A stretch of DNA of 64,000 nt from an uncultured Thermotogae bacterium (GTDB lineage Bacteria; Bipolaricaulota; Bipolaricaulia; UBA7950; UBA9294): positions 10,803 through 74,802 of the forward strand of contig CAYHBG010000001.1 of NCBI GenBank assembly GCA_964354815.1, in the 5' to 3' direction. The notes beneath the pieces are model-generated. The model saw nothing but the letters and a program-made list of their open reading frames with translations, searched no databases and was not told the origin of the DNA. A program made the translations under genes and the position numbers. This document shows positions 2,621 through 63,833 of this stretch, piece by piece. Every line of letters starts with the position of its first letter. Position 1 is the first letter of the stretch.

Positions 2621-2648
2621 AGCCCCCTTGCTGTCGGAAGGGCACTCC

Positions 2649-3596
2649 ATGACCTATGACCCGCTCCAGGTTGCCACCGTCTACGCGGCCACGTTCCCGG
2701 CCCGCGACGACGTGTACAGCCGGTGGACAGACCAAGGCTGGAGGCCCGTCCGCGAGCCCCTCACCGGGGAAGTCATCCTCGCCGGACTCACGGGTACGGG
2801 CCCCAGCATCAGCGGCTACATGATCGCGCCGGGCAGCGTCTCCCACGTCCTGGCCTACGACTTCGACACCGACAACGGCTTCGAGCAGGCGTTCCAGCTC
2901 GCCCTGTTCATGGAGAAAGAGGGACTGCCGGCCTACGTCGAGACCTCACGCCGTGGGGCCCACCTCTGGTGCGTCATGGACCAGGTCAAGCCCGCCGTCG
3001 CCATCAGGGCAGCAGCCCGGGGCCTCCTCCAGGCCGCCGACCTCCCGGACCAGGACGAGCACATCGAGATCCGCCCCGGATCCGACCGTGTCGATGCCGA
3101 GTGGCACACCCACGTCAGCGGGGCGGTCGTCGGCACCGGCCTGGGCCACGCCCTGCGGCTGCCCCTGATGCCCCACCCCAAGACGGGGAAGACCGGCCGG
3201 ATGCTGCACCCCAACGGCAGCAGGCTGGGGGCCACGATGGCCGAGATCCTGCTGACGATGGAGTGGGCGTCGGCCGACAGCCTTGTCGAGTGGGGGTCTC
3301 GCTGGCGACGGCCACCTCTCACCCACCTCCCGCCCGAGTACCACAACCCACACGACTTCCCAGAGGACACCTCGACCGCGTCGGAGATCCTGCGCGAGCT
3401 CTGGGGCGTCCACAACGCGAGACCCGGAGCCAGCGTCCGCTGCCCGGCCCACGAGGACAAGATGCCATCGCTCTCGATCCTGCGGGACGACCGCCGGGCC
3501 ATCTGCAAGGCCGGCCATTGCGTCCTGAACAACAACGACCACGGCCGTGGAACCTACGAGCTCCGCAAGCTCGCACCCGTGGCCGCCAATGGCTGA
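2649..3596 (+). CDS. bifunctional DNA primase-polymerase (Prim-Pol domain) with C-terminal zinc finger
   Basis: ATG 2649 with GGAAGGG RBS; YDFDTDNG acidic motif and GAHLWC motif typical of Prim-Pol; C-terminal C-P-A-H...C-K-A-G-H-C zinc-binding cluster. Confidence 0.65.
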   Translation: MTYDPLQVATVYAATFPARDDVYSRWTDQGWRPVREPLTGEVILAGLTGTGPSISGYMIAPGSVSHVLAYDFDTDNGFEQAFQLALFMEKEGLPAYVETSRRGAHLWCVMDQVKPAVAIRAAARGLLQAADLPDQDEHIEIRPGSDRVDAEWHTHVSGAVVGTGLGHALRLPLMPHPKTGKTGRMLHPNGSRLGATMAEILLTMEWASADSLVEWGSRWRRPPLTHLPPEYHNPHDFPEDTSTASEILRELWGVHNARPGASVRCPAHEDKMPSLSILRDDRRAICKAGHCVLNNNDHGRGTYELRKLAPVAANG

Positions 3597-8918: not shown

Positions 8919-9265
8919 TGCACACCCTCACCCTTGTGGGTGACCCGAACGACGGCACCCACGGCCTGTACATGAACGGCGTCCTCATCTGTGACAGCGG
9001 CGATGCCGACGCCACCCTCAACAGCCCCGACCTGGACTTCTGGCGCGATGCCCTCGACGCCGCCATCACCGCCCTGGGAGGAGAGCTGGACGAGCAGACC
9101 CGCTACCGCCCAGGCCGGAAGGCCGGCGCTCCGTTCGAGGAGGAGTGGGAGTCCTTCTGGCCCGAGAAGCTCGAGAACATGGGGCCCGTTGAGCCACCCA
9201 TCGGAGAGGAGCCCGTCTTCGAGCTCGACGACGAGGAGCCTGCCAACCCCGACTACATCTTCTGA
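8918..9265 (+). CDS. hypothetical acidic protein (115 aa)
   Basis: TGATG overlap start; strongly acidic C-terminus (EPVFELDDEEPANPDYIF). Confidence 0.45.
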   Translation: MHTLTLVGDPNDGTHGLYMNGVLICDSGDADATLNSPDLDFWRDALDAAITALGGELDEQTRYRPGRKAGAPFEEEWESFWPEKLENMGPVEPPIGEEPVFELDDEEPANPDYIF

Positions 9266-9741
9266 TGCGAGTCGCCATCGCGGGGAGCCGACGCCTGCCG
9301 AAGGGCCAGGCTCCCCGCCTCCTCATCCGTTTCCTCGCGGCGCTGCCGGACGACGCCGTGATCCTCATGCGCCGGCCGAAGGGCGACGGCTCCCTCGCCG
9401 GGTCCCTGCCGGGTCCCTTCGAGATGGACGCGCAGAACCTGTGCGGGATCCTCCACCTCGCGGCGGAGTGGTTCCAGCCGGAGCCGACGGACCATCACCC
9501 GGGGAGGGCCAGCGTCTACCTCCGCGACATCGAGATGATCGAGAAGGCGGATCTGGTGATCCTGTTCGTCCACCCCGACGAGGTGGACACGGGGTACAGC
9601 GGGACCATGCACCTCCTCGACAAGGCTCTCGACGCAGCCCGCCCCTGCTACGCCTACAGCGTGTCCCCGGACGGCAAGGTCGCGAGAGTGGGGGAGTACG
9701 ACCCGGACCACCTCTACGCCGAGATTGCACCTTCCGCTTGA
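9265..9741 (+). CDS. SLOG/DUF2493-like Rossmann-fold protein (DprA/LOG-like fold)
   Basis: MRVAIAGSRRL N-terminus, later DIEMIEKADLVILF, pattern typical of phage DUF2493/SLOG proteins; ends immediately before the promoter and RNA array. Confidence 0.45.
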   Translation: MRVAIAGSRRLPKGQAPRLLIRFLAALPDDAVILMRRPKGDGSLAGSLPGPFEMDAQNLCGILHLAAEWFQPEPTDHHPGRASVYLRDIEMIEKADLVILFVHPDEVDTGYSGTMHLLDKALDAARPCYAYSVSPDGKVARVGEYDPDHLYAEIAPSA

Positions 9742-9767
9742 CATGGCGATATTCGCCAGCGTATTGT
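9738..9767 (+). promoter_or_regulatory. near-consensus sigma-A-type promoter TTGACA-N18-TATTGT at the head of the non-coding RNA array
   Basis: ttgaca 9738-9743, 18-nt spacer, tattgt 9762-9767; only array unit with a full -35/-10 pair. Confidence 0.45.
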
Positions 9768-9822
9768 TCGTGGGCCGTCGCGGTGCGTATGGTGGGGTTA
9801 CTTCCCTTGTAAGGACGAGGTA

Positions 9823-9875
9823 GCGGGTTCGACTCCCGTCACGCCGGAAACGTCGTGTAGCTCATCGGCAGAGCG
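9823..9875 (+). ncRNA. tRNA-like module 1 (permuted: T-arm -> acceptor-type hairpin -> D-arm), candidate Y-RNA-like tRNA mimic
   Basis: gcggg-TTCGACT-cccgt T-arm (9823-9839), cacgccg/gaaa/cgtcgtg hairpin (6 of 7 bp), ta + gctc-atcggca-gagc D-arm (9858-9874); no anticodon arm in canonical position. Confidence 0.4.
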
Positions 9876-9974
9876 CGAAACATCCTCGCCAGACCTGTTC
9901 TCGTCGCGGCACTTGACAATCGAATAGTGGTGGCGGTGCGAAGGCCAGGGATACTTCGATGGGATCTGTGGGTC

Positions 9975-10031
9975 GCGGGTTCGAGTCCCGTCCCCCTGTA
10001 CATGCAGGGGGTAGCTCAGTCTGGTAGAGCA
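9975..10031 (+). ncRNA. tRNA-like module 2 (permuted T-arm -> perfect 7-bp acceptor-type hairpin -> canonical D-arm), candidate Y-RNA-like tRNA mimic
   Basis: gcggg-TTCGAGT-cccgt T-arm (9975-9991), ccccctg/tacatg/caggggg perfect hairpin (9992-10011), ta + GCTC-AGTCTGGTA-GAGC D-arm (10012-10030). Confidence 0.45.
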
Positions 10032-10561
10032 ATAGATGTGAAAGACCTTGACCGACCAGTCCTCGCCTCCACAACAACCGTGCTGACGGTGCGTAGCCTG
10101 GGGATACTTCTCTTGAAAGGAACCTCTGGCGACCTGTCCTCGTCAGCAACAACCGTGCTGACGGTGCGTAGGGTGGGGGTTACTTCCCCTTCTTGGAGAC
10201 AAGGTTCGACTCCTTCGGGTGACCTCGGTCACCTGTAGGCGGGGGTGGCCCCGCGTAGACACCCCTCCGCCCGCTTGATCTCGTCAGCAACAACCGTCTC
10301 GGCGGTGCGTAGACAGGGGTTACTTCGTTGGTTGACACTTCCCCCTTCAACAAGGGGAAGCGGGCGGCTCGACTCCGCCAAGCTGCCTCCGTCGCCTTGA
10401 TCTCGCCGGGACAACATCAACGCCAGCGGTGCGTAGGAGAGGGTTACTTCGGTGCCAGGGCTTCGGCCCACCGACGGTCTACCGGACCGTCAACCCCGCA
10501 AGGGGTCGTCTCCTTCTCCGACTTGACCTCGCTGGCAACAGCCTGAAAGGCAGACGCTTGA

Positions 10562-12160
10562 ATGGGCAAGCTCGCCACGCGGCCGAAGGCCGCACCGAAG
10601 GCCGCGATCCGCTCCACGAAGGGGCGGAAGCCGGACACCAAGACCTTCAACTCTGGTGCCGGGTTCAGCCGCGAGCCGAAGTCGGAGCTGTACCTCCTGG
10701 CCGTGACGAACATGGTCAGCGAGAAGACGTTCTACGAGTCCGCCGAGACTCGTGACCGCCGGTTCAACGACCTCATCCGCCAAGTGGCGCTCGAGGATCC
10801 CGACTGGCTGGCGCGGTTCGTGCCGTACCTCCGCGACACCATGAACATGCGGACGGCCTCCATCGTGATGGCGGCCGAGACGGTCCACGCGAAGCTGACC
10901 AAGCCGGTCCCCGCGTCCACGATCAAGAACCGGACGATCATCGACTCCGCCATCAAGCGGGCCGACGAGCCGGCGGAGATGCTGGGCTACTGGTTCAGCG
11001 AGTGGGGCAAGAACCTCCCGCAGCCGGTGAAGCGCGGCGTGGCCGACGCGGTCCAGCGCCTGTATGGCGAGCGCAGCCTCATCAAGTACGACGGCGGCGA
11101 CAAGGCCATCCGGTTCGCGGATGTGATCGACCTCGTCCACCCGGAGGCGAAGGCCCCCTGGCAGTCGGCCCTGTTCAAGTACGCCCTCGATGACCGCCAC
11201 AAGCGGGAGAACCCGCTGCCCGGCGACCTCGCCATGATCGGTCTCAACCGTCTGGCGATGGGCCTCGGTGACGTTGCGTTCCGGGAGGCGTTCGGACCCT
11301 CGTTCGTGGAGCACGCCGGCCTCACCTGGGAGCAGGCGAGCTCGAAGTACGGCAAGCTCGACGCCCGGTTCTGGGAGGCGATGATCCCCTCGATGGGCAT
11401 CTTCGCCATCGTGCGGAACCTCCGCAACTTCGACGACGCGAAGATCAGCAACGCCGCCCAGGACCTGGTGCGGGCCAAGCTGACCGATGCCGAGACCATC
11501 GCCAAGAGCCGGATGTTCCCGCTCCGCTTCTTCACCGCCTTCCTGGCGACGAAGACGCTGACCTACGCCCGCGAGCTCGAGACCGCCATCGACCTGTCGC
11601 TGGCGAACGTGCCCAGCCTCAAGGGCAAGACGCTGATCCTCGTGGACATCAGCCGGTCGATGGACTGGGCGCTGTCCGCGAAGAGCGACGTGGTCCGGCT
11701 GGCCCCGGCCAGCATCTTCGGCGCGGCGCTCGCGGTCCGGGCGGAGAAGCCGACCCTCGTCGCCTTCACCGACACGAGCGTGGAGATCCACGTCCGCAAG
11801 GGCCAGAGCATCCTGCTCGCGACCAAGGAGATCGCGAACGCCCTGCCCCATCAGGGCACCCAGACCTTCCAGGCGGTGAAGCGCCACTTCAACAGTCACG
11901 ACCGCGTGATCATCATCACCGACGAGCAGGCTGACCCCTCGACGGCCTGGGGCTTCGGGGTGCGGGACACGTCCGACGTGGACCCGTCCGCGATCCTGCC
12001 CGAGACGGTGCCGCTGTTCACCTTCAACGTCGCGGGCTATGCCGCCGGCCACGCGCCGTCGGGGAAGCGCAACCGCTACGCCTTCGGCGGGCTGAACGAC
12101 TCCGCCTTCACCGCCATCGAGCTCCTCGAGAAGGGGCGCGACCAGACCTGGCCCTTCTGA
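10562..12160 (+). CDS. rsr: Ro60-related protein (Rsr): TROVE domain plus C-terminal von Willebrand A domain
   Basis: 532 aa; alpha-helical N-terminal region (FYESAETRDRRFNDLIRQVALEDPDWLARFVPYLRDTMNMRTASIV) typical of TROVE; vWA MIDAS motif LILVDISRSMDW about aa 357; Ro60 orthologs are typically adjacent to Y RNA genes. Confidence 0.7.
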   Translation: MGKLATRPKAAPKAAIRSTKGRKPDTKTFNSGAGFSREPKSELYLLAVTNMVSEKTFYESAETRDRRFNDLIRQVALEDPDWLARFVPYLRDTMNMRTASIVMAAETVHAKLTKPVPASTIKNRTIIDSAIKRADEPAEMLGYWFSEWGKNLPQPVKRGVADAVQRLYGERSLIKYDGGDKAIRFADVIDLVHPEAKAPWQSALFKYALDDRHKRENPLPGDLAMIGLNRLAMGLGDVAFREAFGPSFVEHAGLTWEQASSKYGKLDARFWEAMIPSMGIFAIVRNLRNFDDAKISNAAQDLVRAKLTDAETIAKSRMFPLRFFTAFLATKTLTYARELETAIDLSLANVPSLKGKTLILVDISRSMDWALSAKSDVVRLAPASIFGAALAVRAEKPTLVAFTDTSVEIHVRKGQSILLATKEIANALPHQGTQTFQAVKRHFNSHDRVIIITDEQADPSTAWGFGVRDTSDVDPSAILPETVPLFTFNVAGYAAGHAPSGKRNRYAFGGLNDSAFTAIELLEKGRDQTWPF

Positions 12161-12161
12161 G

Positions 12162-12686
12162 ATGGACGAAACAGCCGAGCGCCCTGATGGGTCATGGACC
12201 CTGAAGGACGCTCGGGCCTGGCTCCGCGAGCAGAGGGTTGATGGCGTCCGCTGTCCCTGCTGCACCCAGTTCGCCAAGATCTACAAGCGTCCCATCAACA
12301 GCCAGCAGACCCGTGCCCTGATCCTCCTCTACCGCCTGCGGGGTCGAGAATGGGCACACATCACCCGCGTGGACAAGAGCCTTGAGGGCAACGGGGGCGA
12401 CATCAGCAAGCTCCGCTACTGGGGCCTGGTCGAAGAGGCCGACGAAACGAGGCCAGACGGTGGCCGGGCAGGATGGTGGCGGATCACAGCCAGGGGCGAA
12501 CAATGGCTCCACGGGCAGCTCCTGGTCCCCAAGTTCGCCTACATCTTCGACACCCGTCTTCTCGAGCTCGATGGCCCGCCAACATCTGTTCGTACCGCTC
12601 TCGGGACGAAGTTCAACTACGAGGAGCTGATGGGTCCCGCCCTATCCAACCGAGACACCTTCTGGGACCTGGATCCCATCGAGTAG
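12162..12686 (+). CDS. hypothetical protein with CPCC motif (174 aa)
   Basis: ATG 2 nt after the rsr stop; VRCPCCTQFAKIYKRP; ends TAG 12684-12686. Confidence 0.5.
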   Translation: MDETAERPDGSWTLKDARAWLREQRVDGVRCPCCTQFAKIYKRPINSQQTRALILLYRLRGREWAHITRVDKSLEGNGGDISKLRYWGLVEEADETRPDGGRAGWWRITARGEQWLHGQLLVPKFAYIFDTRLLELDGPPTSVRTALGTKFNYEELMGPALSNRDTFWDLDPIE

Positions 12687-12696
12687 ACTCCGGGGC

Positions 12697-13137
12697 GTGA
12701 AGGTCCCCTACTCCGACAACACGATGCGCCAGACAGCCCATTGGGCGGAGTGGTTCGCGACGGACTGGAAGAGCGAGTACCCCACCCGCATCCACTCGAC
12801 CGACATCGCGGGAGACGGGTCCCCAGAGTGGCACCCGGACTTCGCGAAGTGGCTGACCAGATCAGGCGGTCAAGGCAGGCGCAACGGAGAACAACGCCTG
12901 CGGACCACCAGGGTCATGCGTCGTCTCAGGCGCGTGGCCGTTCGTGAATACGAGGTCCTCTACAGGATCCTCGTGCTAGGCGAGCGACTCGAGGAGACGA
13001 CGCGATGGCTCAACGAGCGAGCGAGGCGGAACGCGATCCCCTTCCCACCCCACCGCCCGACCGGCCCCCACTACATGGACCGCGACACCCTGGCGATCTT
13101 CATCGCCGGCATCGACTTCGCGAGGGAGTACTGGTAG
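12697..13137 (+). CDS. hypothetical protein (146 aa)
   Basis: GTG start; W-rich protein; no motif recognised. Confidence 0.45.
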   Translation: MKVPYSDNTMRQTAHWAEWFATDWKSEYPTRIHSTDIAGDGSPEWHPDFAKWLTRSGGQGRRNGEQRLRTTRVMRRLRRVAVREYEVLYRILVLGERLEETTRWLNERARRNAIPFPPHRPTGPHYMDRDTLAIFIAGIDFAREYW

Positions 13138-13160
13138 GCCTCGCAGGCCTCGTCTCCCTG

Positions 13161-13718
13161 ATGGTCATGTCCACCGGCACCGTCGGCCGGGAACCATCAC
13201 AGCAGACCATCATCCCCCAGGATCAGCTCAGGGCCGTGGCCCCGGCTCCTCGTCCGAGTCCCACACCCACCGTGGCACCGACTCCATCTGCTCCTGCCGC
13301 TCCCGCCACAGCCTCTCCGTCTCCTCGTCCGACCGCTTCGCCACGACCAGCATCGCCCACACCACGACCACCCAAGCCCCGGCCATCGCCGCGAGCAACC
13401 CAACGACCAGCGCCCAGACCCGCTCCACTTCAGACCTCCAGCTCCGTCAAGGGGACGGCCACATGGTATTGCCTGCCGGGCCAGTCACGATGCACCAGGG
13501 GGCACGCAGGCGGCCTGTACGCCGCGATCAGCCCCGACCTGGACTTCCTGACCGGGAAGCGCATCAGGGTCTGCCACGGGTCTTCCTGCGTCGTCGTCAG
13601 GGTCATAGACTGCAACTGCAAGGCTACGCGGTCGGTGGACTTGTACGCGGACGCCTTCCGGCGCATCGCGCCCCTCTCGGCCGGACGGATCAAGGTGACG
13701 ATCTCGTGGGGATCCTGA
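13161..13718 (+). CDS. RlpA-like double-psi beta-barrel (DPBB) domain protein with Pro/Ala/Thr-rich linker
   Basis: ~80-aa PAPT-rich low-complexity region, then GTATWYCLPG...TRGHAGGLYAAISPDLDF...RIRVCHGSSCVVVRVIDCNC...VDLYADAFRRIA matching the RlpA/expansin-like DPBB pattern. Confidence 0.5.
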   Translation: MVMSTGTVGREPSQQTIIPQDQLRAVAPAPRPSPTPTVAPTPSAPAAPATASPSPRPTASPRPASPTPRPPKPRPSPRATQRPAPRPAPLQTSSSVKGTATWYCLPGQSRCTRGHAGGLYAAISPDLDFLTGKRIRVCHGSSCVVVRVIDCNCKATRSVDLYADAFRRIAPLSAGRIKVTISWGS

Positions 13719-23453: not shown

Positions 23454-26400
23454 CTACACCGCCGGGGAGCGGAGACCGAGCATCTGGCCCTTCTTCGCGA
23501 GGACGCGCTCAACCTCGTGGGCCACGGCACGAGCCAGGTGCGAGATGTCCTGCTCGCCGCGAACCACGGGGCCGTTGATGTTCACGGTCACGCTGGAGGG
23601 ACCGCCGCCGAACCCGCCGCCCACATCCACCGAACGGGGGTTGCGGAGGATGGCAACCGCCTCGTCTCCCGCCTCGCCCATGATGGCGCGGGTCTTGCCC
23701 TTCGCCATGCCGACAATGCCGGCGGCGTGCGCGATGGTCGGAGCGGTGACGCTCGTCCCGGTCCTCGTCTTCTGGAACGAGAAGCCAAGAGCCTCGAGGA
23801 ACGACCGCATCCCGGTGGATGCCCCGCCGACGTAGTCGCCGAGCGTGGAAAGGTCAGCGTTCGCCTGCTTGATCGTGCCGCCGAACGTGTCGGCGTACTG
23901 CGCCGCCAGGTCCTGGGCGATGGAGTACTTGTTCATCGCGGTGTTGTAGATATCGTCCGCCTTGCCGAGATCGGTAGCGATCTGGGTGTTGAGGGCCGCG
24001 ATGGCGGCCTGGGCCGCCGCCGTCTCGACCTCCGCCGTGTGGGCGGCCTGAGAGGCGGCCCATGCAGCCTGGGCGTCCTGAAGGTTCCGCTGGGCCTGGA
24101 TCTTCCACTCCTCGCCGGTCCCGGCGTAGGACTCCTTGGCATAGCCCAGCTTCTGCTGGCCGATGCCGGCGGTGATGATCGCCTCCTTCTGGCGCATGTA
24201 CCGCTCTTCGCCCGTCTCGCCGGGAGCCTGGAACTGGGCGATGGCGAGCTGGGTCGTGATCTGCCGCTGCTGGAGGGCGAGGTCGAGCGCCTGGCTGGCG
24301 CGGCCGATCTGCCAGAGGTGCCGCTGGAGCTTGCCAAGGGCGGACCCTCCGGCCTGGCCCAGCATGCCGGCCGCGTCCGCGATGCCACGCAGGGCCAGGC
24401 GGGTCGTGTTGGCCCAACTCGCCTGAGAGGCGGTGGCGGACAACTCACCGATCTGACTCTGGAGGTTGGCGACCTCACGACTCGCGTCTTGCGCCGAGGT
24501 CATCAGGCCCTTGTAGCGATCAGCATTGGCCTGGCCGGACGTGGGGAGCATCTGCTTCCCGAACTGGCCTTCACCGAGGGACACCGTCTGCATCGTGCCC
24601 GGACCGGGCTGGCTCTGGATCTCCGCGTAGGCCTTGTCGATGGCCTTCTGGTTGTCGATCTCCTGTGCGACCTGAAGCTCGGTGGCGCGAGCCATGTACC
24701 CGGCCGCCTCCGCTGCGGCTCCCTTGGACAGGCCCATGCCGCCGCCGAACGTGGGCGTTCCGCCCTTGCCGAACTTGACCGTGGGCTTGCCGCTCAGGAT
24801 CTGCTGGTACTCGTCGGTCGCCATGCCCTTGGCCCAGTCGGACCAGCCCTGCTGGTTGCCGAACGAGGCCCCGGCCCTGGTCCGCTGCTTCTGCCAGTAC
24901 GAGATACCAGCCGCCCCCGGCACGACCCCCGATCCGGCGGGGAGATACGGACTCTGGATCCGCTGCATCGCCTGGTTGAGCGGGATCGTCAGGGTCTGGG
25001 TGATCATGCTCGCGATGTCGAGGCGCTCGAACTGCACCGCGACCTTGCGCTCCATCGTCTTGCCCCACTCCGCCGCGTCGGGGATCGTGAGGCCGGTCGT
25101 CCAGTCCTTGAGCGCCTTGTCGATGGTGTTGAAGTCCGTGATGATCTTGCCGGTAGCATCCGTGAAGGCGTACCCGGTGTTCATCAGGTTCTTGACCATC
25201 TGGGGCAGCGCGGCAGCGGCGGGACTCTTGCCCGCATCACGCGCCTCCTGCCCCCGGTACGCCATCGTGGGTCCGGCCGCAGCCCCGACCCGCTTCTGGG
25301 CGCGGGTCATCGCGGCGTTCGTGGAGTCGGTGATGGCGAGTTCGGCATCCATCATCGAGTTGAACTTCTGGGAGACCTCGTTCCAGTTGCCGAACTCCGT
25401 CGGGGAGTAGTACATCTCCTGGACGTTCTTCGGCCGCAGAGCCGGCTCGCCGCCCGGTGTCTGGTTCAGGATGTCCCCGACGATGGCACCGATGCCGCCG
25501 GCGGCAGCACCGCCGACAGCGCCTGCGCCGACGCCGAACGGGGTGGCCGACCACGCCCCGAGACCAGCTCCGGCAGCAGCCCCGGCACCGGCAGCGCCGA
25601 TGTAGCGCCCGATGCCGGTGTCGCCACGGCTGGCCCGGATGGTGTTGACCAACTCCTCGACCGCGCCAGACCCGCCGCCGAACTGGGTCCCGAACAGGGG
25701 TCCGCCCATGACGCCGCCGTAGCCGCCATAAAGGCCCTGGGCCCCACCCTGCATGCTGGCGGCGGCCAGGATCTGGTCCGACGCCTCGGACCACGCCTTG
25801 CCGCCAGCCTTGGCGACGACGGACGCCTTGAGGGCATCTTCCACCCAGCTCCCGACGGAAAGCGAGAGACCAGCCGTCGCAGCCGTTCCAGCGATGGCGG
25901 CCTGGTAGTTACCACCCTGCTGGCGCGTCTGATCAGCGAGGGCGTTCGTGACCTTGGTGGCCGTCGGAGCCATGCCCATCATCACGTCGCCGACACGCTG
26001 CATGGCCGGTAGGGCAGCCTCGTCAATGATCTTCGACGCAGCCTGCATCGCCATGCCGTAGAGGCTGGTCGAGCCAATGATCACGCCCAGGTTGCGGAGC
26101 ACGCCGCCCGTGGTGGGCATCGTCTTCTTGGTGGCGGCATCTAGCTCCTTCTGGTATTGCCTCTCGGCCTGAACCAGCGGCTTGATGGTCTCGCTGTTCT
26201 TCTTCCTGGCCCCCTCGAGCTCCTTCTCCGCGTCGGCTCGTTCGGGCGTTCCCTCCCCGTACTTATCGACCTCGGAGCGGTAGGCATTCAGGTTCGCCAC
26301 GCCCTTCTGGATGGCGTATCCGGTGCGGTTGTGCGCCTGGGTGTACGCCTTCTCCGCCTGGGCGCGGGCGACCATCGCCCGGTCGTATCCCTGGACGCCG

Positions 26401-41659: not shown

Positions 41660-41985
41660 TACTGCCGGCGGACGTTGATCGTCACCTCAGGACTGGTGGT
41701 CTGAACGCGACCGCCCTGGTAAGTGATCTCCCATTGGACGATGTACGTCCCTGGGACCGCGAGGTCGTTGGGACCCCACGAGTAGCTGACCTTGCCTGCT
41801 GGGCCGTCGAGGACCACACCCCCGGCATTCACCGTGTAGCGGTGGTCGTCCGCCTTCCGCATCTGGAACTTGACCCCGCTGACGTAGGCGGGGGAGCAGT
41901 CGAGGATGGACGACGGGTCGTCCTCTTCGTGGATGATGGCCGTGATGTCCGGGGCGGTGTCGCCCTGGACGAAGGTCAGGCTCAT
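41659..41985 (-). CDS. small beta-rich hypothetical protein (108 aa), possible Ig-like accessory domain protein
   Basis: ATG 41985 in ATGA overlap with the giant gene stop (41982-41984); ORF-track 352-aa version is a GC-frame over-extension. Confidence 0.4.
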   Translation of the reverse strand: MSLTFVQGDTAPDITAIIHEEDDPSSILDCSPAYVSGVKFQMRKADDHRYTVNAGGVVLDGPAGKVSYSWGPNDLAVPGTYIVQWEITYQGGRVQTTSPEVTINVRRQ

Positions 41986-44900
41986 GCGATCTCCGCGTCG
42001 AGGGTGAAGGTGCCGGCGATCCACGCCCCGGTCCTGAAGTAGTTCCGGCGGGTGAAGAGCCAGGTGAAGTCGAGCGTCCGCGCCGAGAGGGCCGGCGCGA
42101 TGGTGGCTGCGGTGTGGTCGCCCTCGATGGTCCCGGCCCACAGGTCGGGAGCAAGGGTTGCGGCGCTGAAGGTCCCCTCGATCTCGACCGTGATCCGCAG
42201 GCTGATCGAGGCGTCGATCCCGAACGTCCCGGTCCCAGCCGAGCCGATGACCGCGTCGAGCGTGAAGGAGACCGCCCCGAAGCCCGTGATCAGGGCGTCG
42301 AGGGTGAACGATGAGACAGGGCTGGAGCTGATCGAGGCGTCGGCCGTGAGGGTTCCGACGGAGCTCGCGAGGATGGTCGCCGCCGCATCGAAGGCGGAGG
42401 AGGGAGACCCCGTGATGACGGCGGCGACCGGGAAGGATCCGGTGACGGCCCCGACCACGATCTCGGCGGCGGCCGGGAAGGAGGAGGTCTGAGGGGACAG
42501 GGAGACGGCGTCGGTGGCGAACCCGCCCATTCGGGTGGCTGCCACGACCGCCTGGGTCGTGAAGCCTGCCTGCTGCGCCGTCTTCAGGACTGCGGCTGCG
42601 CCGAACCCACCGGGATAGGTCCGACGCAGGATCGCGTCCACGGAAACTGTAACAGAGCGCGTGCGCTTGACAACAGCGTCTGCAGCGAAAGCTCCGGCGT
42701 TCGCCCCGAAGATCCACGCCGCCGCGCTGAACGTCGAGACTGACTGGAAACTGATCACCGCGTCAGCGGCGACGGTTCCCGAGTTGTGGCGCAGCAGGAT
42801 CGCGTCGGTCGTGAACGAGCCGCCCTCCGCGACGGGCGCGACGATCCACGCTTCCGTGGTGAACGACCCGCCGACGGAGGCCTCCACCAGGGCCGAGACG
42901 GTCAGGACGCCAGCGCCCTGATGGGCGATGATGGCGTCGGTCGTCAGGGACGCTGGTGCCGTCCGGTGGATGACGGCGTCGGCTTGGACATGGGACGACG
43001 CCGTTCCCCTGACGACCGCATCCGCAGAGAAGGCGCTGGTCCCGGCCCCAGCCACCAGGGCCGCCACGCCGAAGGAGGTCAACGTGGGCTTGAGGACGAT
43101 GCTGTCCGAGGCGAAGGACGCCTGGACCGGACGCAGGATGGAGGCGTCGGCCGCGAAGCTCGACGTGGCGCTCGAGACGACCATCGCGCTCAACGAGAAC
43201 GCGCTCGCCCTGCTCGACATGATCGCCGAGTCGATCCTGAGCAGCCCCACCGCGCTCGAGCGGATGACCGCGTCCGCTGACAGGCTCGACACAGCCGCCG
43301 AACGGATCACCGCGTCGGTCGTGAAGGCGGAGGAGGCGCTCGAGCGGATGACCGCGTTGGCAGCGAAGGTCGAGGACGCCGTCGCGAGGAACAGCGCGTC
43401 CAGCGTGACCGGAGCTGACGCCTGGGTCCTGAGGAGCGCGGCATCCAACGTGACCGAGGCGTAGACCGGGCCCGCGATCCAGGCGTCGAGGTTGAAGAAG
43501 CCCGCCCGCCCAGCCCGGATGAAGGCATCGACGCTGATCGCGCCAGCCAGCCAGGAGCCAACCGTGAAGGTGCCCGAGAGCCACGCCCCGACCGGGAAGC
43601 TATGTGCGGTCTCTGACCGGATGACCGCATCCGCAGATAGACCGGAGATAGACGTGCGCCCGACGGTCGCGGAGGCCGTGAAGAAGGTCTGCGACGAGGA
43701 GCGGATGACCGCGCTCGCGGCCAGGGTCGCGGCGACGTTCCTGGAGATGATGGCCGAGGACGTGAAGGAGCTGGCGGTGGACCGCCGGACGACCGCATCC
43801 ACCGAGAAGGAGTAGGTCTTGGACGTGCGAACGAGGGCGGCGACGTTGAAGGTGAAGGCGACGTTCCTCGCCAACACCGCGTCGGACGTGAAGGTGAAGA
43901 TGGCCGCGCTGCGGATGATCGCGTCCATCGAGAAGGTCGAGGCGGCCGAGTCCCGCTTGACGGCAGCAGCCGAGAACGTGAAGGAGGCGCTGCTCCTGAT
44001 GACCGCGTCCGCAGCCGCGCTCGACGATGCCGTGGAGCGCAGCACCGACGCGACCGCGAAGGTGTTCGACTGACCCTTGGCGAGGACGGCCCCGGCGAAG
44101 AACGTCCCGGTGGCGGTCCGCTTGCTGATCGCAGCGGCGGTGAAGCTGCCGGCGGCCGTGCCCCTGATGACGGCGTTCACCGTCAGGGCCGACGAGACCG
44201 TCCTCTTGATGACCGCGTTCGCGGTGAAGGAGCCAGCGGTCGTCTCCCCGACGAGGGCAGCGACCGTGAACGACCCCGCCAGATGCCCCAGGACGGCCGC
44301 ATCCGCCGTCCACGCCGTACCACTCCGGGTTCCCCGCAGGATCGCGTAGGCGACGGTGCTGGAGGCCCTGGGGGCCAGGATCGTGGCGTTGGTCTGCCAG
44401 AAGCCCGAGGCGGAGACCTTCAGGACCGCGTTCGCGGTCAGGCTCCCCGTGTTCGTCTTCTGGATCCACGCCGCCGTTGTGAAAGCACCCGTGCGTGGGG
44501 CCTTGAATACGGCATCGGCCGTGAACGTCCTGCTAACGGTCCCCTTCACAACGGCGTTGGCCGAGGTGGCGCTCGTGGCCGTGGCCTTGACGAGGGCGTA
44601 GAGGGTCGTCGCGCCGCTGGCGCTGCCCTTGATGACCGCGTTCGCGGAGAAGGTTCCCGTCGGGACCCGGATCAGCCAGGCAGAAGCGGTCGTGGAGCCG
44701 GTCGAGGACCGCAGCAGGGTGGCGCTGGCGGTGAACGAGGCAGCCTGGGTGCGCTTCAGGACGGCGCTCACGCCGAAGGTGCCCGCCGTCGCGCCGTAGA
44801 TCAGGGCGGAGGCGGTGAAGGACCCGGACCTGGTGGCCTTCAGGGTCGCGGCTGCGGTGAACGTCCCGGCATTGGTCTTCTGGATCCACGCGGCTGCGGT

Positions 44901-46080
44901 GAAGGTGCCTGCCTGCGACCGCTTGATCACTGCGTTCGCCGTGGTGCTGCCGCTCGCGGACGCCTTGACCAAGGCCGCTGCCGTGAAGGTGCCGGAGGCG
45001 CTCGAGCGGATGACCGCGTTGGCCGTCAGGGATCCGCTGACTGTGGCCTTGATGCAGGCAGACGCGCTGAACGTGCCCGAAACGGGCTTCTGGAGCCACG
45101 AAGATGCAGTCAGGCTGCCGTTTCGGGTCGTCCTGACCACCGCGTTCGCGGTCAGGGAGGCGGTCGTAGAGGCCTTGACGAGAGCGGCAGCCGTGAACGA
45201 TCCCGCCTGACCCCGCTTCAGGACGGCGTTGGCCGTGAGGCCCGAGCTCGCCGTCCCCTTGACCACGGCCGCAGCCGTGAACGTCGAGGCGACCGTCTTC
45301 TGGACCCACGCCGCTGCCGCGAAGCTCGATGACGCCGGCCGCTGCACCACCGCAGCGGCGGTGAACGACCCTGCGGCGGTTGCCTTGACGAGGGCGGCAG
45401 CGGTGAACGTGCCCGCCTGGGTCCGCCGCACCACCGCATCGGCCTTGGTCGAGCCTGCGGCGGTCGCCTTGACGACCGCGTTGGCGGTGGTCGAGGAGGC
45501 GTAGGTCTTCTGGATCCACGCGCTCGCCGTGAACGTCGAGGACAGCGTGGCCTTGCGGACGGCATCGGCCGTGAAGGTGCCCGACCTCGTCGCCTTCAGG
45601 ACGGCGTTGGCGGTCGTGGACGAGGTGGCCGTCCCCTTGACCACCGCGTTCGCCGTGAGCGACGACGAGATCGTCGCCTTTCGCACGGCGTCTGCCGTGA
45701 AGGTCTTCGTGGACGACGTGGCCTTGATGACCGCGTTCGCGGTCGTGCTGCCGCTGGTGGTCCTCTTCAGGATCGAGTCGGCCTTCAGGGTCGAGGCTGT
45801 GACCGTCGCCTTGACCACGGCTGCCGCCGTGAACGTCCCGGTGCGGGTGCCCTTCAGGACCGCGTTGGCGGTCAGGGACCCCGCCTGGGTGCGCTTCAGG
45901 ACGGCGTTCGCCGTCAGGGCCGACGAGACCGTCCTCTTGATGACCGCGTTCGCGGTGAATGCCCCGCTGGCCGTCGTCCGGCGGATGGCGTCGGCGGTGA
46001 ACGAGCCCGACTGCGTCTTCCGCAGGATTGCATCAGCGGTGAGACCGACGATGCCACCCTTGCCCGTGATGTAGTGCGCG
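41982..46080 (-). repeat. about 4.1 kb of in-frame tandem ~48-51-nt coding repeats (FTADAV/FTANAV peptide repeats)
   Basis: Periodic ...gcgtc.gcggtgaa.g...c.g... pattern visible on the plus strand; translated repeats are listed in the ORF track. Confidence 0.7.
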
Positions 46081-49000
46081 GCGACTCGCGTGCTCGACAG
46101 CGCCGTGGCGTAAATCGCTACTTCGTCGTAGTCACCCCTGAAGAAGTCAGCGGGGAAGTAGTACATATTGCTGTCGGCCCATGTGAGCCCGGTCTTCGTA
46201 TCTCCCTGCACGCCATCGACGTAGATGGTGAAATCGGACGCCGCCTTGACACAGACAATGTGATGCCAGTTGGTGTCGGTGATGGCCTGAGAGGACAGCG
46301 CGCCAGAACCAGAATGCCCATGAGGCCAGAACCGAATCCGATCATCCCCCTCGATTTCGATAATCGGCGCGTCGTCAGCCGTCTGGTTGAGTAGGTACTC
46401 CTCGGCCCCCGAGCGGGTTCTCTTGAACCACATCTCGATGGATTGCGGGTTGTTCCCGAACTTGAGAACAGCCGGAGCAGGATCGATACGAAGCCTACCG
46501 TTGTTGTTCGCGCCGGTATTCAGCGCGGTGTTCGAATCGCCAACAATGGCACCCGTGATACCGAACAACGGGTCGGTCGGCCCCGGCAACTCCCCTGTGC
46601 CATACCACGTCGCCGTGACGGCACCCATCTCATCGACAGGTGGGTTGGCCTTACTTGCCTCGCCCAGCCGCCAGTACGCGACAGGTGAGTCTCCGAGAAC
46701 CAGCCCGTGATAGGGCTGCATGGTCTTCTTGAGGACGGCGTTCGCCGTCAGGGACCCGGCCTGGGCCCGCTTCAAGACCGCATCGGCCTTGGTGGACCCG
46801 GTGATCGTCTGGGCGGTCACGGCCAGCACGGCGTCGGCAGAGAGCGACCCCGCCTGTGTCCGCTTCAGAACGGCGTCAGACGAGAATGTCCCGCCGGTCG
46901 GCGGCGTACCGATGTAGGAGTCGAGGGTGATCCCGCCGGAAGACTCGCTGTAGAGCTCGAAGCCCCACACGTCGAGGCCGGCGTAGTTCACAGTCGCAAC
47001 GCTGACGATGCGGTAGTAGCGGAAGGACGCTGCGTCCCACGAGAACTCGGTGACGCTGTGGTCGGCGTGGTAGTAGCCGTAGTTGCCCGAGGAATGAACG
47101 GACCTGTGGTTGGTGTGATCTGCCGGACCAGCCAGGGTGGTGTATGAGCTGAAGGCGGAGTCGCTCGAGCCGTCGATCCTCAGGGCACCCGTGAGGGTGG
47201 TTTCCGTGACCGCAGAGGCGTCCAGCATTGCCCCGACGGTGGACTTGGCAGACCCCAGATCGAAGTACATGTCGATCCGGTTGCCGAGCTGAACCTTGGT
47301 GTTAGGGTCCTCGTCCACGATGGCGGCCGGGTCCCCGACGACAAGGCCGTCAGTCGAGTGGTAGGCGTAGGGGACGAGCCGGTAGACGAGGTTGGCCTTG
47401 CCCTTGGTCACCCGCCCGATGCCGATCCAGGCATCGACGGTGAAGGACCCCGGAGCCCGGATCGTGAGGTCGTCAAGGTACGTCCAGGAGAAAGGTTCTG
47501 CCGACCCGGCGTGGGTGGTGACGATGCCGACGTTCCCCGGTCGCTGGAGGGACGCCTCGGAGTCCTCGACGGAGAGGTTCCAGCCTGCCGGCTCAGAGCC
47601 CCCCGTGGCCCAGTACTTCACCTTCAGGACGGTTGGGTTGACCCCCTGCACCCTGACCCGCATGTAGAAGGGGGCCGTGGGCCAGCCGTTCGTATCCTCC
47701 GCGATGCTGGTGGGACCGCTGTAGAGGCCGTCAGTCCACTTGCCGATGGTGGGGTTGTAGATGCTGAAGCTGGGGTTCGAGCCGATGACATAGGAGGCGT
47801 TGGGGCGGTAGAAGGAGCCGCTGAAGGATCCAGACGTGTAGTACATGTACTGCCAGGCCTGGATGCGCGAGGCGAACCAGAACGCGCTGTCCCAGCCCGC
47901 TGTGTTGACGGTGACCAGAAACTCCACGTCCTGAGGCCGGTACTGGCCTCCCGTGTCGCTCTGGATGTAGGTCATCTCCTTGGGCTGGGTATAGCCACCC
48001 GACGCGAGGTAGAGGGTGTTGCTCGAGATCGTGGAATAGCCGCCGTAGGCGTTGTGGGGGGTGCGCCACTTCACGCCGATGGTGTCAGGGGTCCGACCCT
48101 CGAGGTAGGTCCCGTCCGTCCCCGCGAACGTGTCCCAGGTGATCAGCTTGTAGCCGGTGCCCTTCTCGATGGCCGCGCCGACCGTGAACGAGCTGCTGAC
48201 ACCCGTCTTCTTGATGACGGCGTTGGTGGTGAAGAACGGTTGGATCCAGGCGTTGAGACGGAAGTACCTCTCCTGGATCACGGCCCCAGCCGCGAAGCCC
48301 AGGAACTCCAGCCCCGTAGCGGAGAAGGTGGCCGACGCGTGTGTCCCCTGGATGCCCTTCAGGACGTGGTAGGGGACGAGGTTCCAGCCGGAGTCCCCGC
48401 CGTAGACCTCGAGCGATGGGTAGGCGGTGACCAGCCCCAGCCCGCCACCGTTGCCGGTCGAGGTGCCTACGTCGTAGATCTCGGTGAGCTTGTTGTCGAG
48501 GTAGCCGCTGCTGGTGGCGTTGATCGGTGTCCAGGCGCTGAAGCGTGGTAGATCGCTATCAACCGGGTCGGAGAAGGCGTAGAGCAGGAGGGCGTTCTGC
48601 CAGCAATGCTCTTCGTGATCGAGGTCGGCGGTTGCGAGCGACGAGACGGTGGCAACGCTCGTATCGCTGAAGTTCCACGCCCCAGCGATGAAGTTGAGAC
48701 CCATCTCCGAGGAGTCGCCTCCGCCCGTGTTCTGGGCGTTGTAGGTGGGTCCACCCACGCCACCGAACGCCAGGATCACGCCGTAGACGTGGTTGGCGGC
48801 GGGACTGAACGAGATGGCGGCCGATGACTCCGTGCCGCCGTGCGTCCCCTTGCGGGTCGCATAGATCGCGATGGCCGTCTCGGTCGTGAGGACGCCGGTC
48901 CCCGTAGAACTCTGGATACCGATGACATACCAGGGGTAGCCGTTGGTGACGAGGTCCGTGGACGCGGTGAAGTCGTTCATCCCAGCGCACTCGATGAACG

Positions 49001-49850
49001 CGACCAGGAGATCGCCGTCGTTCGAGGCGGGGATGGTCATCGTCAGGCTGCTGGTGCCCGACGCTGCCGTGCCCAAGGAGCGGACGAACGGCCTGCCACC
49101 GTACTGGGTCCTCTTGATGACCGCGTCAACCTTGAACGTGGGCACGGCGCGCACGCCGAAGAGGACGCTCGCCACGCGTTCTGCGGCAGACAGGGTGGCC
49201 GTGACCGTGATGGTCTGTCCCGAGGCAACACCGGTCGAGGCGACCCGGTAGATCAGGTCCGCAGCCATGTCGTTGCCGGTCGTGGACGACAGGTGTGTGG
49301 CCGGGTACTCGACGACGTTCGCGCCCCACGACGGACCGCCAGAGATCGCGGTCGTGGCGCGAGTGAAGGTGGCGCTGTCGTCGGCGACACCCGTCAGGGC
49401 GAAGACGAGCTGGTTGATGTTGATGAAGCCCGTCGTCGTGAGGGTGTGGGACATCGCCGTGCTGCCCATCGCCTGCTCGACGGAGTTGGCGAGCTTCGCG
49501 ATGTCCCAGCCTTCGGTCGCGGCCTTCTGGAGGACGATGATGACCGAGCCTGCGGGGGTGATCGCGCCCGAGCGGGTCAGGGTCGGGTTGTTCGTCTCCG
49601 ATGCGCCGAGGATCTTCCAGGCGACATAGACGCGGGATGAACCAACGCCGATGCCGTTCGCCGTTGACCCCGGCGTCTCGTCGATGATCTCCGTCCACGA
49701 CTGGTCGATGGTCGCGGTGACGCTGTACGGCCTCCAGGCCGCGACGAGGATGCCGAGGTCACCGGCCGAGTAGCCGCCGGGGATCGTGGTCGCGACGTTC
49801 TGGGTGGTGGTGGCAGCCCAGGTTCCTGCGGCGCGAACGGAGATCGCCAT
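41982..49850 (-). CDS. giant 2622-aa fibrous repeat protein with LamG/concanavalin-A-like lectin domain
   Basis: Single ORF; N-terminal ~900 aa globular; LamG-like segment ...NWHHIVCVKAASDFTIYVDGVQGDTKTG...FRGDYDEVAIYATALSSTRVAAHY (nt ~46090-46730); C-terminal ~1350 aa are ~80 degenerate 16-17-aa repeats (GSFTANAVLKRTQA-like). Confidence 0.7.
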   Translation of the reverse strand: MAISVRAAGTWAATTTQNVATTIPGGYSAGDLGILVAAWRPYSVTATIDQSWTEIIDETPGSTANGIGVGSSRVYVAWKILGASETNNPTLTRSGAITPAGSVIIVLQKAATEGWDIAKLANSVEQAMGSTAMSHTLTTTGFININQLVFALTGVADDSATFTRATTAISGGPSWGANVVEYPATHLSSTTGNDMAADLIYRVASTGVASGQTITVTATLSAAERVASVLFGVRAVPTFKVDAVIKRTQYGGRPFVRSLGTAASGTSSLTMTIPASNDGDLLVAFIECAGMNDFTASTDLVTNGYPWYVIGIQSSTGTGVLTTETAIAIYATRKGTHGGTESSAAISFSPAANHVYGVILAFGGVGGPTYNAQNTGGGDSSEMGLNFIAGAWNFSDTSVATVSSLATADLDHEEHCWQNALLLYAFSDPVDSDLPRFSAWTPINATSSGYLDNKLTEIYDVGTSTGNGGGLGLVTAYPSLEVYGGDSGWNLVPYHVLKGIQGTHASATFSATGLEFLGFAAGAVIQERYFRLNAWIQPFFTTNAVIKKTGVSSSFTVGAAIEKGTGYKLITWDTFAGTDGTYLEGRTPDTIGVKWRTPHNAYGGYSTISSNTLYLASGGYTQPKEMTYIQSDTGGQYRPQDVEFLVTVNTAGWDSAFWFASRIQAWQYMYYTSGSFSGSFYRPNASYVIGSNPSFSIYNPTIGKWTDGLYSGPTSIAEDTNGWPTAPFYMRVRVQGVNPTVLKVKYWATGGSEPAGWNLSVEDSEASLQRPGNVGIVTTHAGSAEPFSWTYLDDLTIRAPGSFTVDAWIGIGRVTKGKANLVYRLVPYAYHSTDGLVVGDPAAIVDEDPNTKVQLGNRIDMYFDLGSAKSTVGAMLDASAVTETTLTGALRIDGSSDSAFSSYTTLAGPADHTNHRSVHSSGNYGYYHADHSVTEFSWDAASFRYYRIVSVATVNYAGLDVWGFELYSESSGGITLDSYIGTPPTGGTFSSDAVLKRTQAGSLSADAVLAVTAQTITGSTKADAVLKRAQAGSLTANAVLKKTMQPYHGLVLGDSPVAYWRLGEASKANPPVDEMGAVTATWYGTGELPGPTDPLFGITGAIVGDSNTALNTGANNNGRLRIDPAPAVLKFGNNPQSIEMWFKRTRSGAEEYLLNQTADDAPIIEIEGDDRIRFWPHGHSGSGALSSQAITDTNWHHIVCVKAASDFTIYVDGVQGDTKTGLTWADSNMYYFPADFFRGDYDEVAIYATALSSTRVAAHYITGKGGIVGLTADAILRKTQSGSFTADAIRRTTASGAFTANAVIKRTVSSALTANAVLKRTQAGSLTANAVLKGTRTGTFTAAAVVKATVTASTLKADSILKRTTSGSTTANAVIKATSSTKTFTADAVRKATISSSLTANAVVKGTATSSTTANAVLKATRSGTFTADAVRKATLSSTFTASAWIQKTYASSTTANAVVKATAAGSTKADAVVRRTQAGTFTAAALVKATAAGSFTAAAVVQRPASSSFAAAAWVQKTVASTFTAAAVVKGTASSGLTANAVLKRGQAGSFTAAALVKASTTASLTANAVVRTTRNGSLTASSWLQKPVSGTFSASACIKATVSGSLTANAVIRSSASGTFTAAALVKASASGSTTANAVIKRSQAGTFTAAAWIQKTNAGTFTAAATLKATRSGSFTASALIYGATAGTFGVSAVLKRTQAASFTASATLLRSSTGSTTASAWLIRVPTGTFSANAVIKGSASGATTLYALVKATATSATSANAVVKGTVSRTFTADAVFKAPRTGAFTTAAWIQKTNTGSLTANAVLKVSASGFWQTNATILAPRASSTVAYAILRGTRSGTAWTADAAVLGHLAGSFTVAALVGETTAGSFTANAVIKRTVSSALTVNAVIRGTAAGSFTAAAISKRTATGTFFAGAVLAKGQSNTFAVASVLRSTASSSAAADAVIRSSASFTFSAAAVKRDSAASTFSMDAIIRSAAIFTFTSDAVLARNVAFTFNVAALVRTSKTYSFSVDAVVRRSTASSFTSSAIISRNVAATLAASAVIRSSSQTFFTASATVGRTSISGLSADAVIRSETAHSFPVGAWLSGTFTVGSWLAGAISVDAFIRAGRAGFFNLDAWIAGPVYASVTLDAALLRTQASAPVTLDALFLATASSTFAANAVIRSSASSAFTTDAVIRSAAVSSLSADAVIRSSAVGLLRIDSAIMSSRASAFSLSAMVVSSATSSFAADASILRPVQASFASDSIVLKPTLTSFGVAALVAGAGTSAFSADAVVRGTASSHVQADAVIHRTAPASLTTDAIIAHQGAGVLTVSALVEASVGGSFTTEAWIVAPVAEGGSFTTDAILLRHNSGTVAADAVISFQSVSTFSAAAWIFGANAGAFAADAVVKRTRSVTVSVDAILRRTYPGGFGAAAVLKTAQQAGFTTQAVVAATRMGGFATDAVSLSPQTSSFPAAAEIVVGAVTGSFPVAAVITGSPSSAFDAAATILASSVGTLTADASISSSPVSSFTLDALITGFGAVSFTLDAVIGSAGTGTFGIDASISLRITVEIEGTFSAATLAPDLWAGTIEGDHTAATIAPALSARTLDFTWLFTRRNYFRTGAWIAGTFTLDAEIA

Positions 49851-63763: not shown

Positions 63764-63833
63764 GGGGTCCTCCCTGATGGTTGGCGAATATCGCCAGCAT
63801 GATGGACCGCACCAGACGGTCCGTCAAGGGCCT

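Follow-up and report, generated by a model that had tools for sequence, protein, structure and literature searches.

The Ro60 locus

The window, the 64,000-nt stretch of contig CAYHBG010000001.1 analyzed here, is a genome fragment of an uncultured high-GC phage, with about 66% G+C; the contig belongs to a Logan assembly made from run ERR3804374. On its plus strand lies a gene, ro60 (10562-12160), whose 532-aa product is identified by its sequence matches as a Ro60/Rsr ortholog, combining a TROVE domain (a predicted ring of HEAT repeats) with a vWA domain that carries the MIDAS motif (metal ion-dependent adhesion site). Directly upstream of it stand six structured units, which very probably are Y RNA genes. 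The TROVE-plus-vWA assignment, made in an earlier reading of the DNA without database searches (the sequence-only reading), was borne out: Pfam TROVE (PF05731) scored 52.4 bits (E 6.6e-14), above its cut-off of 23, PHROG 850 ('RNA-binding protein') spanned residues 18-524 (E 1e-51), and the solved Ro60 of the Thermus phage phiLo (PDB 9KOP/9L5Y) was matched at E 6e-23. The profile search proposed by that reading was positive for TROVE, but Pfam vWA_Ro60 gave a weak match below threshold (19 vs 27.7 bits). In an alignment of 10 homologs the predicted MIDAS is intact, residues D362-x-S364-x-S366 (DxSxS), T433 and D454 being invariant, and the N-terminus aligns as well. A likely ribosome-binding site, GAAAGG (10545-10550, plus strand), was seen by inspection 11 nt before the ATG. 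Among phages of Streptomyces, Gordonia and Arthrobacter, the 'Ro-like RNA binding proteins' that match best are 37-44% identical to it, and identity reaches 71% in uncultured viral contigs.

The region in front of ro60 is non-coding, as had been proposed. The G+C content of the three codon positions is flat across 9775-10537 (0.60/0.62/0.63), against third-position values (GC3) of 0.91 and 0.96 in the flanking genes, and an independent gene call on the source contig left the same 820-nt gap (9742-10561). The region holds an array of six units of 66-144 nt, all on the plus strand, which lie 25-787 nt upstream of ro60 and are separated by spacers of 7-18 nt; four of the five spacers are A/C-rich, with ACAAC or ACAUC. 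The pattern TGCG-N8-16-TACTTC occurs six times in the 64 kb, each time on the plus strand within 9784-10450, where 0.35 matches would be expected by chance, and none of 100 shuffles reached six. The sequence-only reading had counted six or seven tandem degenerate units, and this description needs correction. There are exactly six. Tandem Repeats Finder, whose only report was a 12-nt repeat within ro60, missed the array because the units are too divergent, and 'tandem' therefore means adjacent paralogs rather than a strict repeat. 'Degenerate' is misleading, as the unit classes recur in relatives.

A shared scaffold with covarying helices

The six units share one scaffold with covarying helices. 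Its 5' half runs from one strand of a closing helix (7 nt) through GGUGCG(U/A)A and one strand of a second helix (8-9 nt, ending in GGG) to NUACUUC. After a variable module of 20-96 nt, the 3' half brings the partner of the second helix (CCUY...), 1-3 nt, the motif C-N-N-G-N-N-C-U-C (CNNGNNCUC) and the partner of the closing helix. Closing helices vary between units and are complementary within each (GCUGAC/GUCAGC, GUCUCGGC/GCCGGGAC, GCCAGC/GCUGGC). The conserved 5' strand, GGUGCGUA in five units and GGUGCGAA in one, resembles GGUCCGA, GNCGAAN0-1G and CGAA without being identical to them, and occupies the position that GGCGAAUG holds in the Rfam YrlA consensus.

Covariation was measured on the aligned scaffolds of 25 units, taken from the window and from L005-L008, the four closest loci, with both helices named beforehand. 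Helix cells were paired in 86% of cases, compared with 65% in column shuffles; 13 of the 15 pairs showed changes on both sides, and the covariation score was 0.647 versus 0.25 (0 of 500 shuffles). When the partner was slid by 1-3 columns, pairing dropped to 38-51%. Cognate strands paired better than non-cognate ones both in the second helix (7.12 of 8 versus 6.07) and in the closing helix (6.36 of 7 versus 4.23), pairing of the latter being somewhat inflated by the use of the best-pairing candidate behind the anchor motif as its 3' partner, a choice of which the second helix and the anchor are independent. None of 20,000 swapped-partner permutations reached the observed sum.

A profile built purely on the sequences of the 19 units from outside the window recovered all six window units, with E values between 3e-7 and 5e-4, and had no further match in the window at E≤1. 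RNAalifold, applied to each class of units, gave the same stems in every class and joined the conserved strands in a short helix with a bulge, whose pairs are, in order, G-C, G-C (facing a bulged U), G·U and C-G. Together with the sixfold motif, these covarying helices uphold the earlier proposal of a Y-RNA-like array upstream of ro60.

Inner modules and unit classes

The modules enclosed by the scaffold differ. Units 1 (9775-9909) and 2 (9928-10071), like all others on the plus strand, are of the YrlA type and contain the tRNA-like core of that family, a T arm, an acceptor-like stem and a D arm in permuted order. In unit 1, which has a V hairpin in addition, these elements lie at 9823-9839, 9840-9857 (with a GAAA loop) and 9860-9874; in unit 2 they lie at 9975-9991, 9992-10011 (a stem-loop) and 10014-10030. 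The Rfam model YrlA (RF02553) matched 9967-10038 in unit 2 (45.4 bits, E 4e-8) and 9816-9877 in unit 1 (32 bits, E 3e-4), in agreement with the T-arm- and D-arm-like elements that the sequence-only reading had seen upstream of the gene. Further support comes from the fold, the relatives' profile (E 5e-4 for unit 1 and 3e-6 for unit 2) and the class alignments. The acceptor-like stem-loop of unit 2 has eight predicted pairs, and we take it for an acceptor stem of tRNA-like, 7-bp geometry, after which come UA and the D stem; Chen et al. tied this geometry to RNase P cleavage of Mycobacterium smegmatis YrlA (PMC4201824).

Units 3-6 lack a D arm. Unit 3 (10081-10148; 68 nt) is minimal and consists of the scaffold alone, two helices and a short loop (folding z -2.3, relatives' profile E 4e-6). 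Unit 4 (10156-10289) encloses a T-arm-like hairpin (AAGGUUCGACUCCUU) and two more hairpins (z -2.95, E 7e-6), unit 5 (10297-10411) one hairpin and a T-arm-like hairpin (GGCGGCUCGACUCCGCC; E 3e-7), and unit 6 (10421-10537) three hairpins, with neither T nor D arm (z -3.15, E 2e-6); class alignments support all four. The proposed tRNA mimicry holds only for the YrlA-type units 1 and 2; the other four share the scaffold and carry different inner modules.

By similarity of the inner modules, the best counterpart of each window unit is found in relatives and not in the window itself. The classes are YrlA with V hairpin (unit 1, L006_2144, L007_931, L005_2231), YrlA without V hairpin (unit 2, L008_1967, L005_2071, L006_2006), minimal (unit 3 and five others), T-arm plus two hairpins (unit 4, L006_1836, L008_2117), hairpin plus T-arm (unit 5 and four others; the weakest assignment, with scores that barely separate relatives from other window units) and three hairpins (unit 6, L008_2367, L007_1165). 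Compensatory changes preserve the helices within classes, the order of classes varies between loci, and every class turns up again in phages that have no more than 53-71% identity in Ro. Because the counterparts lie in relatives, the helices are kept and the order varies, the six units are old, differentiated paralogs and not recent duplicates.

The Rfam YrlA consensus starts with acggCgaAUGCuuggGgaaCUAc, in which the GNCGAAN0-1G motif known from the literature is followed by a helix strand and then by the conserved YUAY (PMC4201824). Its Ro-binding end has the order GGCGAAUG motif, helix strand, CUAC. The window units show the matching order GGUGCGUAG, NNNGGGG, UUAC, and with their conserved 3' strand they look like divergent homologs of the YrlA Ro-binding end.

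Arrays in related phages

Candidate units adjoin Ro in every related locus inspected. Ro accompanied by arrays of 2-6 units was found in more than 25 actinophage loci, and Y RNA annotation is absent from all of them. The counts per locus are approximate, being taken from an inspected listing of the 5' motif and including contigs that end early: six units in L026, as in the window; about six in Atuin, on both sides of Ro among tRNA genes; five each in GiJojo, L006, L007 and L008; four each in BRock, VanLee and L005; and two to four in other loci. Inspected listings were used because a looser regular expression was too noisy, with too high an opposite-strand background (35 vs 138). The exact 5' motif of the window (GGTGCGWANNNNRGGG) had no match in the four relatives examined first, which carry a different motif.

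Two annotated tRNA genes in these phages, GiJojo tRNA-Arg(cct) (L002 2751-2825) and VanLee tRNA-Arg(tct) (L003 2704-2775), start at the 5' motif of a Y unit or within about 10 nt on its upstream side. Both lack an Rfam tRNA match at E≤0.01, and a YrlA match (2744-2807) overlaps the VanLee call; both are probably mis-called Y RNA modules. The 131-kb contig IMGVR_UViG_3300028802_000007 carries two Ro-plus-Y loci 75 kb apart (L005/L008; about 29-36 kb and 104-111 kb), with four and five units and each flanked by the window's neighbor genes; either two related genomes may have been joined in this contig or the duplication may be genuine. In BRock, a match to the manA RNA motif (L001 5061-5224; 49.7 bits, just under the gathering score of 55.2) lies between tRNA-Lys genes.

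Transcription and gene context

A σ70-like promoter (TTGACA, 18-nt spacer, TATTGT; 9738-9767, plus strand) matches at 10 of 12 positions and is the only promoter-like site in 9000-13200. Its predicted start, at about 9773-9775, coincides with the first bases of unit 1. The closest relative, L008, has identical hexamers and spacing before its first unit, with a different spacer sequence. Since the search revealed this single promoter before unit 1 and nothing resembling a terminator from the array to ro60, we infer co-transcription followed by processing. The promoter spacer contains a perfect palindrome, TGGCGATATTCGCCA (9744-9758), a possible operator. A second perfect palindrome, TGGCGAATATCGCCA, lies at 63782-63796, and allowing one mismatch four matches were found against 0.32 expected by chance; the two palindromes could be operators for one regulator. 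In BRock (L001, about 2403-2433) and GiJojo (L002, about 2393-2423) the first YrlA-type unit overlaps a near-consensus TTGACA-17-GATACT, in which AUACUU of the scaffold doubles as a -10-like hexamer.

Elsewhere, the window encodes a portal protein (56085-57491, minus strand), a large terminase (57711-59213, minus strand) and an HNH endonuclease, as well as a plus-strand block of a PD-(D/E)XK nuclease, an ERF recombinase, an AEP-type primase and an AAA_25 ATPase. The primase-like protein (2628-3596, plus strand) matches the AEP domain named for the TOTE conflict system (Pfam PF22548, E 1.5e-11). Two minus-strand open reading frames of 3191 and 2622 aa (23454-33029 and 41982-49850) have coding-type GC3 and no PHROG match at E≤1e-5. 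Megablast of the Ro/array locus against phage genomes returned no match and the best phage match of the terminase is 29% identical; hence the phage has no close sequenced relative. Directly upstream of the array, a 158-aa open reading frame (9265-9741, plus strand) shows a weak, sub-threshold match to nucleoside 2-deoxyribosyltransferase (E 0.001); its conservation beside the array is limited to L005 and L008. In a search for conserved protein neighbors, flanking genes were common only to these two closest loci and therefore indicate no protein partner. The Ro gene stands inside large tRNA arrays in BRock, GiJojo and Atuin, in contrast to the tRNA-free window.

Discussion

Y RNAs adjoin Ro60 in bacteria and in 22 phages (PMC4201824), and the window locus is this known kind of system in an expanded and diversified form. 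Salmonella Typhimurium and M. smegmatis have two Y RNAs each (PMC4201824), as does phiLo (PMC12135203), and the array described here is larger than in any characterized Ro60 system. A literature search, outside which lay two bacterial Y RNA reviews and the supplement of Chen et al. 2014, found no description of a phage array with more than two Y RNAs. The earlier impression of an unusually long, expanded Y-RNA locus is therefore justified against the characterized systems but not as a claim of uniqueness, since related actinophages carry 2-6 units.

Like bacterial YrlA and YrlB with Rsr (PMC4201824; RF02553), the units lie just upstream of a Ro60 ortholog on the same strand and show YUAY behind a 5' motif and a helix strand. 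The tRNA-like domain of YrlA, with its permuted T/acceptor/D order, is present in units 1 and 2, unit 2 shares with M. smegmatis YrlA the tRNA-like 7-bp acceptor stem (by our reading of the predicted fold), and units 4 and 5 resemble YrlB in having a T arm only (PMC4201824). The differences concern number (six units, against two in S. Typhimurium and M. smegmatis), the motif (UGCG(U/A)AG, not GNCGAAN0-1G), Rfam scores below gathering and the absence of a tRNA-like element from units 3 and 6. In phiLo (PMC12135203; 9KOP, 9L5Y), a phage Ro60 that is a detectable homolog of the window protein likewise has Y-like RNAs directly upstream, with a stem, a bulge and a stem around a CGAA-type motif. PhiLo, however, has two such RNAs instead of six, tRNA-like modules are not described there, and its binding to Ro60 and to host PNPase was demonstrated in vitro, whereas for the window binding is predicted.

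The cultured actinophages BRock, GiJojo, VanLee and Atuin encode a Ro-like protein 40-44% identical to that of the window and have 4-6 units of the form [G/A]NUGCGNA ... NUACUUC, typically two of the YrlA type plus others; the 5' motif of VanLee is more divergent. Their arrays lie in or beside tRNA genes, unlike that of the window, which has no tRNA gene; two of their units are annotated as tRNA-Arg, and the 3' strand motif of BRock and GiJojo is CUUUUUCUAG. Metazoan and Deinococcus radiodurans Y RNAs also pair their 5' and 3' ends as a bulged helix and occur as several paralogs per genome (two to four in vertebrates), and the vertebrate 5' strand GGUCCGA resembles GGUGCGUA of the window. Metazoan Y RNAs differ in lacking a tRNA-like module, and their genes are separate transcription units instead of a tight array before Ro60.

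Several observations weigh against reading the units as Y RNA genes, in addition to the choice of closing-helix partner mentioned above. The covariance-model check suggested by the sequence-only reading succeeded in part: the matches of units 1 and 2 to YrlA stay under the gathering score of 69, units 3-6 are unmatched, and Rfam at gathering thresholds reported nothing in the whole window. The published 5' motif GNCGAAN0-1G is unmatched exactly, with UGCGUAG in five units and UGCGAAG in one. Single-sequence folding energies of units 1, 2 and 5 are no better than those of shuffles (z -0.4 to -1.3), so that support for these three rests on covariation. Neither PNPase nor RtcB nor another RNA-repair partner was found among the neighboring genes tested, and ARAGORN detected no tRNA gene in the whole window, which leaves a tRNA-linked role unsupported by context here. 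Set against these points are the scaffold, its covariation and the position next to Ro60, and we regard it as very probable that the locus comprises a phage Ro60 and six Y RNA genes.

The array could instead serve mainly as a cis-acting leader of the ro60 mRNA, in which Ro60 binds the scaffolds of its own 5' untranslated region and autoregulates translation or stability, free small RNAs not being the functional product. The one promoter upstream, the lack of a terminator-like site before the gene and the end of unit 6 only 24 nt before the ATG would suit such an arrangement. We nevertheless consider it unlikely: in Atuin, candidate 5'-motif units flank Ro on either side, amid tRNA genes; the Ro/Y-unit block of BRock and GiJojo is part of a tRNA gene cluster, which is processed; six conserved classes and their elaborate inner modules exceed the needs of an operator; and characterized Y RNAs are free RNAs (PMC4201824). 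Regulation in cis and free Y RNAs are, moreover, not exclusive.

Far less probable is a decayed tRNA gene cluster, whose pseudo-tRNAs would lie beside Ro by chance. T- and D-arm sequences are present, relatives' Ro genes lie within tRNA arrays, and the Rfam tRNA model matches 9781-9847, but at 26.2 bits, under its cut-off of 29, and ARAGORN calls no tRNA. The arms of units 1 and 2 follow the permuted order of YrlA (T, acceptor, D), all six units have in common a non-tRNA scaffold with covarying helices on which purifying selection is already seen, and conservation of the classes across phages is not expected from decay. The least probable alternative is that the repeats act as DNA, as replication-origin iterons or regulator binding sites. 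Short conserved motifs do occur six times in 760 bp, and the same strand carries replication and recombination genes (ERF recombinase, primase, helicase-type ATPase) upstream. What is conserved is strand-specific, however, compensatory base-pair changes link helices 45-130 nt apart, for which DNA-binding sites have no need, and across unrelated phage backbones the scaffold accompanies Ro and not replication genes. Both tRNA remnants and DNA iterons were rejected on the covariation evidence.

If the locus encodes Ro60 with six Y RNAs, the promoter at 9738-9767 would transcribe the units and ro60 as one precursor, host RNases would cut it in the 7-18-nt spacers, and the acceptor-like stem of unit 2 may be a further target, cut by RNase P as has been reported of M. 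smegmatis YrlA (PMC4201824). The conserved bulged helix of each RNA would dock on the outer face of the Ro60 ring, and the variable module would be the adaptor or gate through which Ro60 is coupled to a partner. A documented precedent for such a partner is the host exoribonuclease PNPase, to which the Ro60 of D. radiodurans and that of S. Typhimurium are tethered by Y RNA (PMC4201824). The Ro60 of phiLo likewise binds host PNPase and the two Y-like RNAs encoded upstream of it, and all of these assemble in vitro (PMC12135203). The phage might thereby redirect structured-RNA decay or quality control, or counter an RNA-directed host defense. In other phages, the Ro60-like protein of coliphage Bas63 counters Ppl defense (PMC11482910), and the Ro-like protein of mycobacteriophage LeBron is toxic on overexpression (PMC13148394). 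The most likely function would be the coupling of one Ro60 ring, via six interchangeable RNAs, to host RNA-processing factors, and the six conserved classes suggest several distinct partners or conditions and not redundancy. Any specific partner, and the idea of multiple adaptors as such, is put forward tentatively.

A broader possibility, which we think less likely than not, is that at least six Y RNA classes with distinct functions make up a toolkit conserved among actinobacterial phages: two mimic tRNA, two have a T arm only, one is minimal and one has three hairpins. All would be placed on one Ro60 ring by the common scaffold, and each would couple it to a different host factor or act as a decoy for a different tRNA-directed host nuclease. 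Were this true, Ro60 would be a programmable RNA-adaptor hub in infection or counter-defense, and the window would be the most complete single-operon example of the toolkit.

New here are the common covarying scaffold, the six conserved classes and the finding that arrays are widespread but unannotated in actinophages. The scaffold permits Y RNAs missed by the Rfam YrlA model to be found and counted and flags probable tRNA mis-annotations in published phage genomes, and experiments are feasible in relatives that are in culture, namely BRock, GiJojo, VanLee and Atuin, which have 4-6 units. Six structurally distinct Y RNAs on one docking scaffold make the idea of the Y RNA as a modular adaptor concrete and testable.

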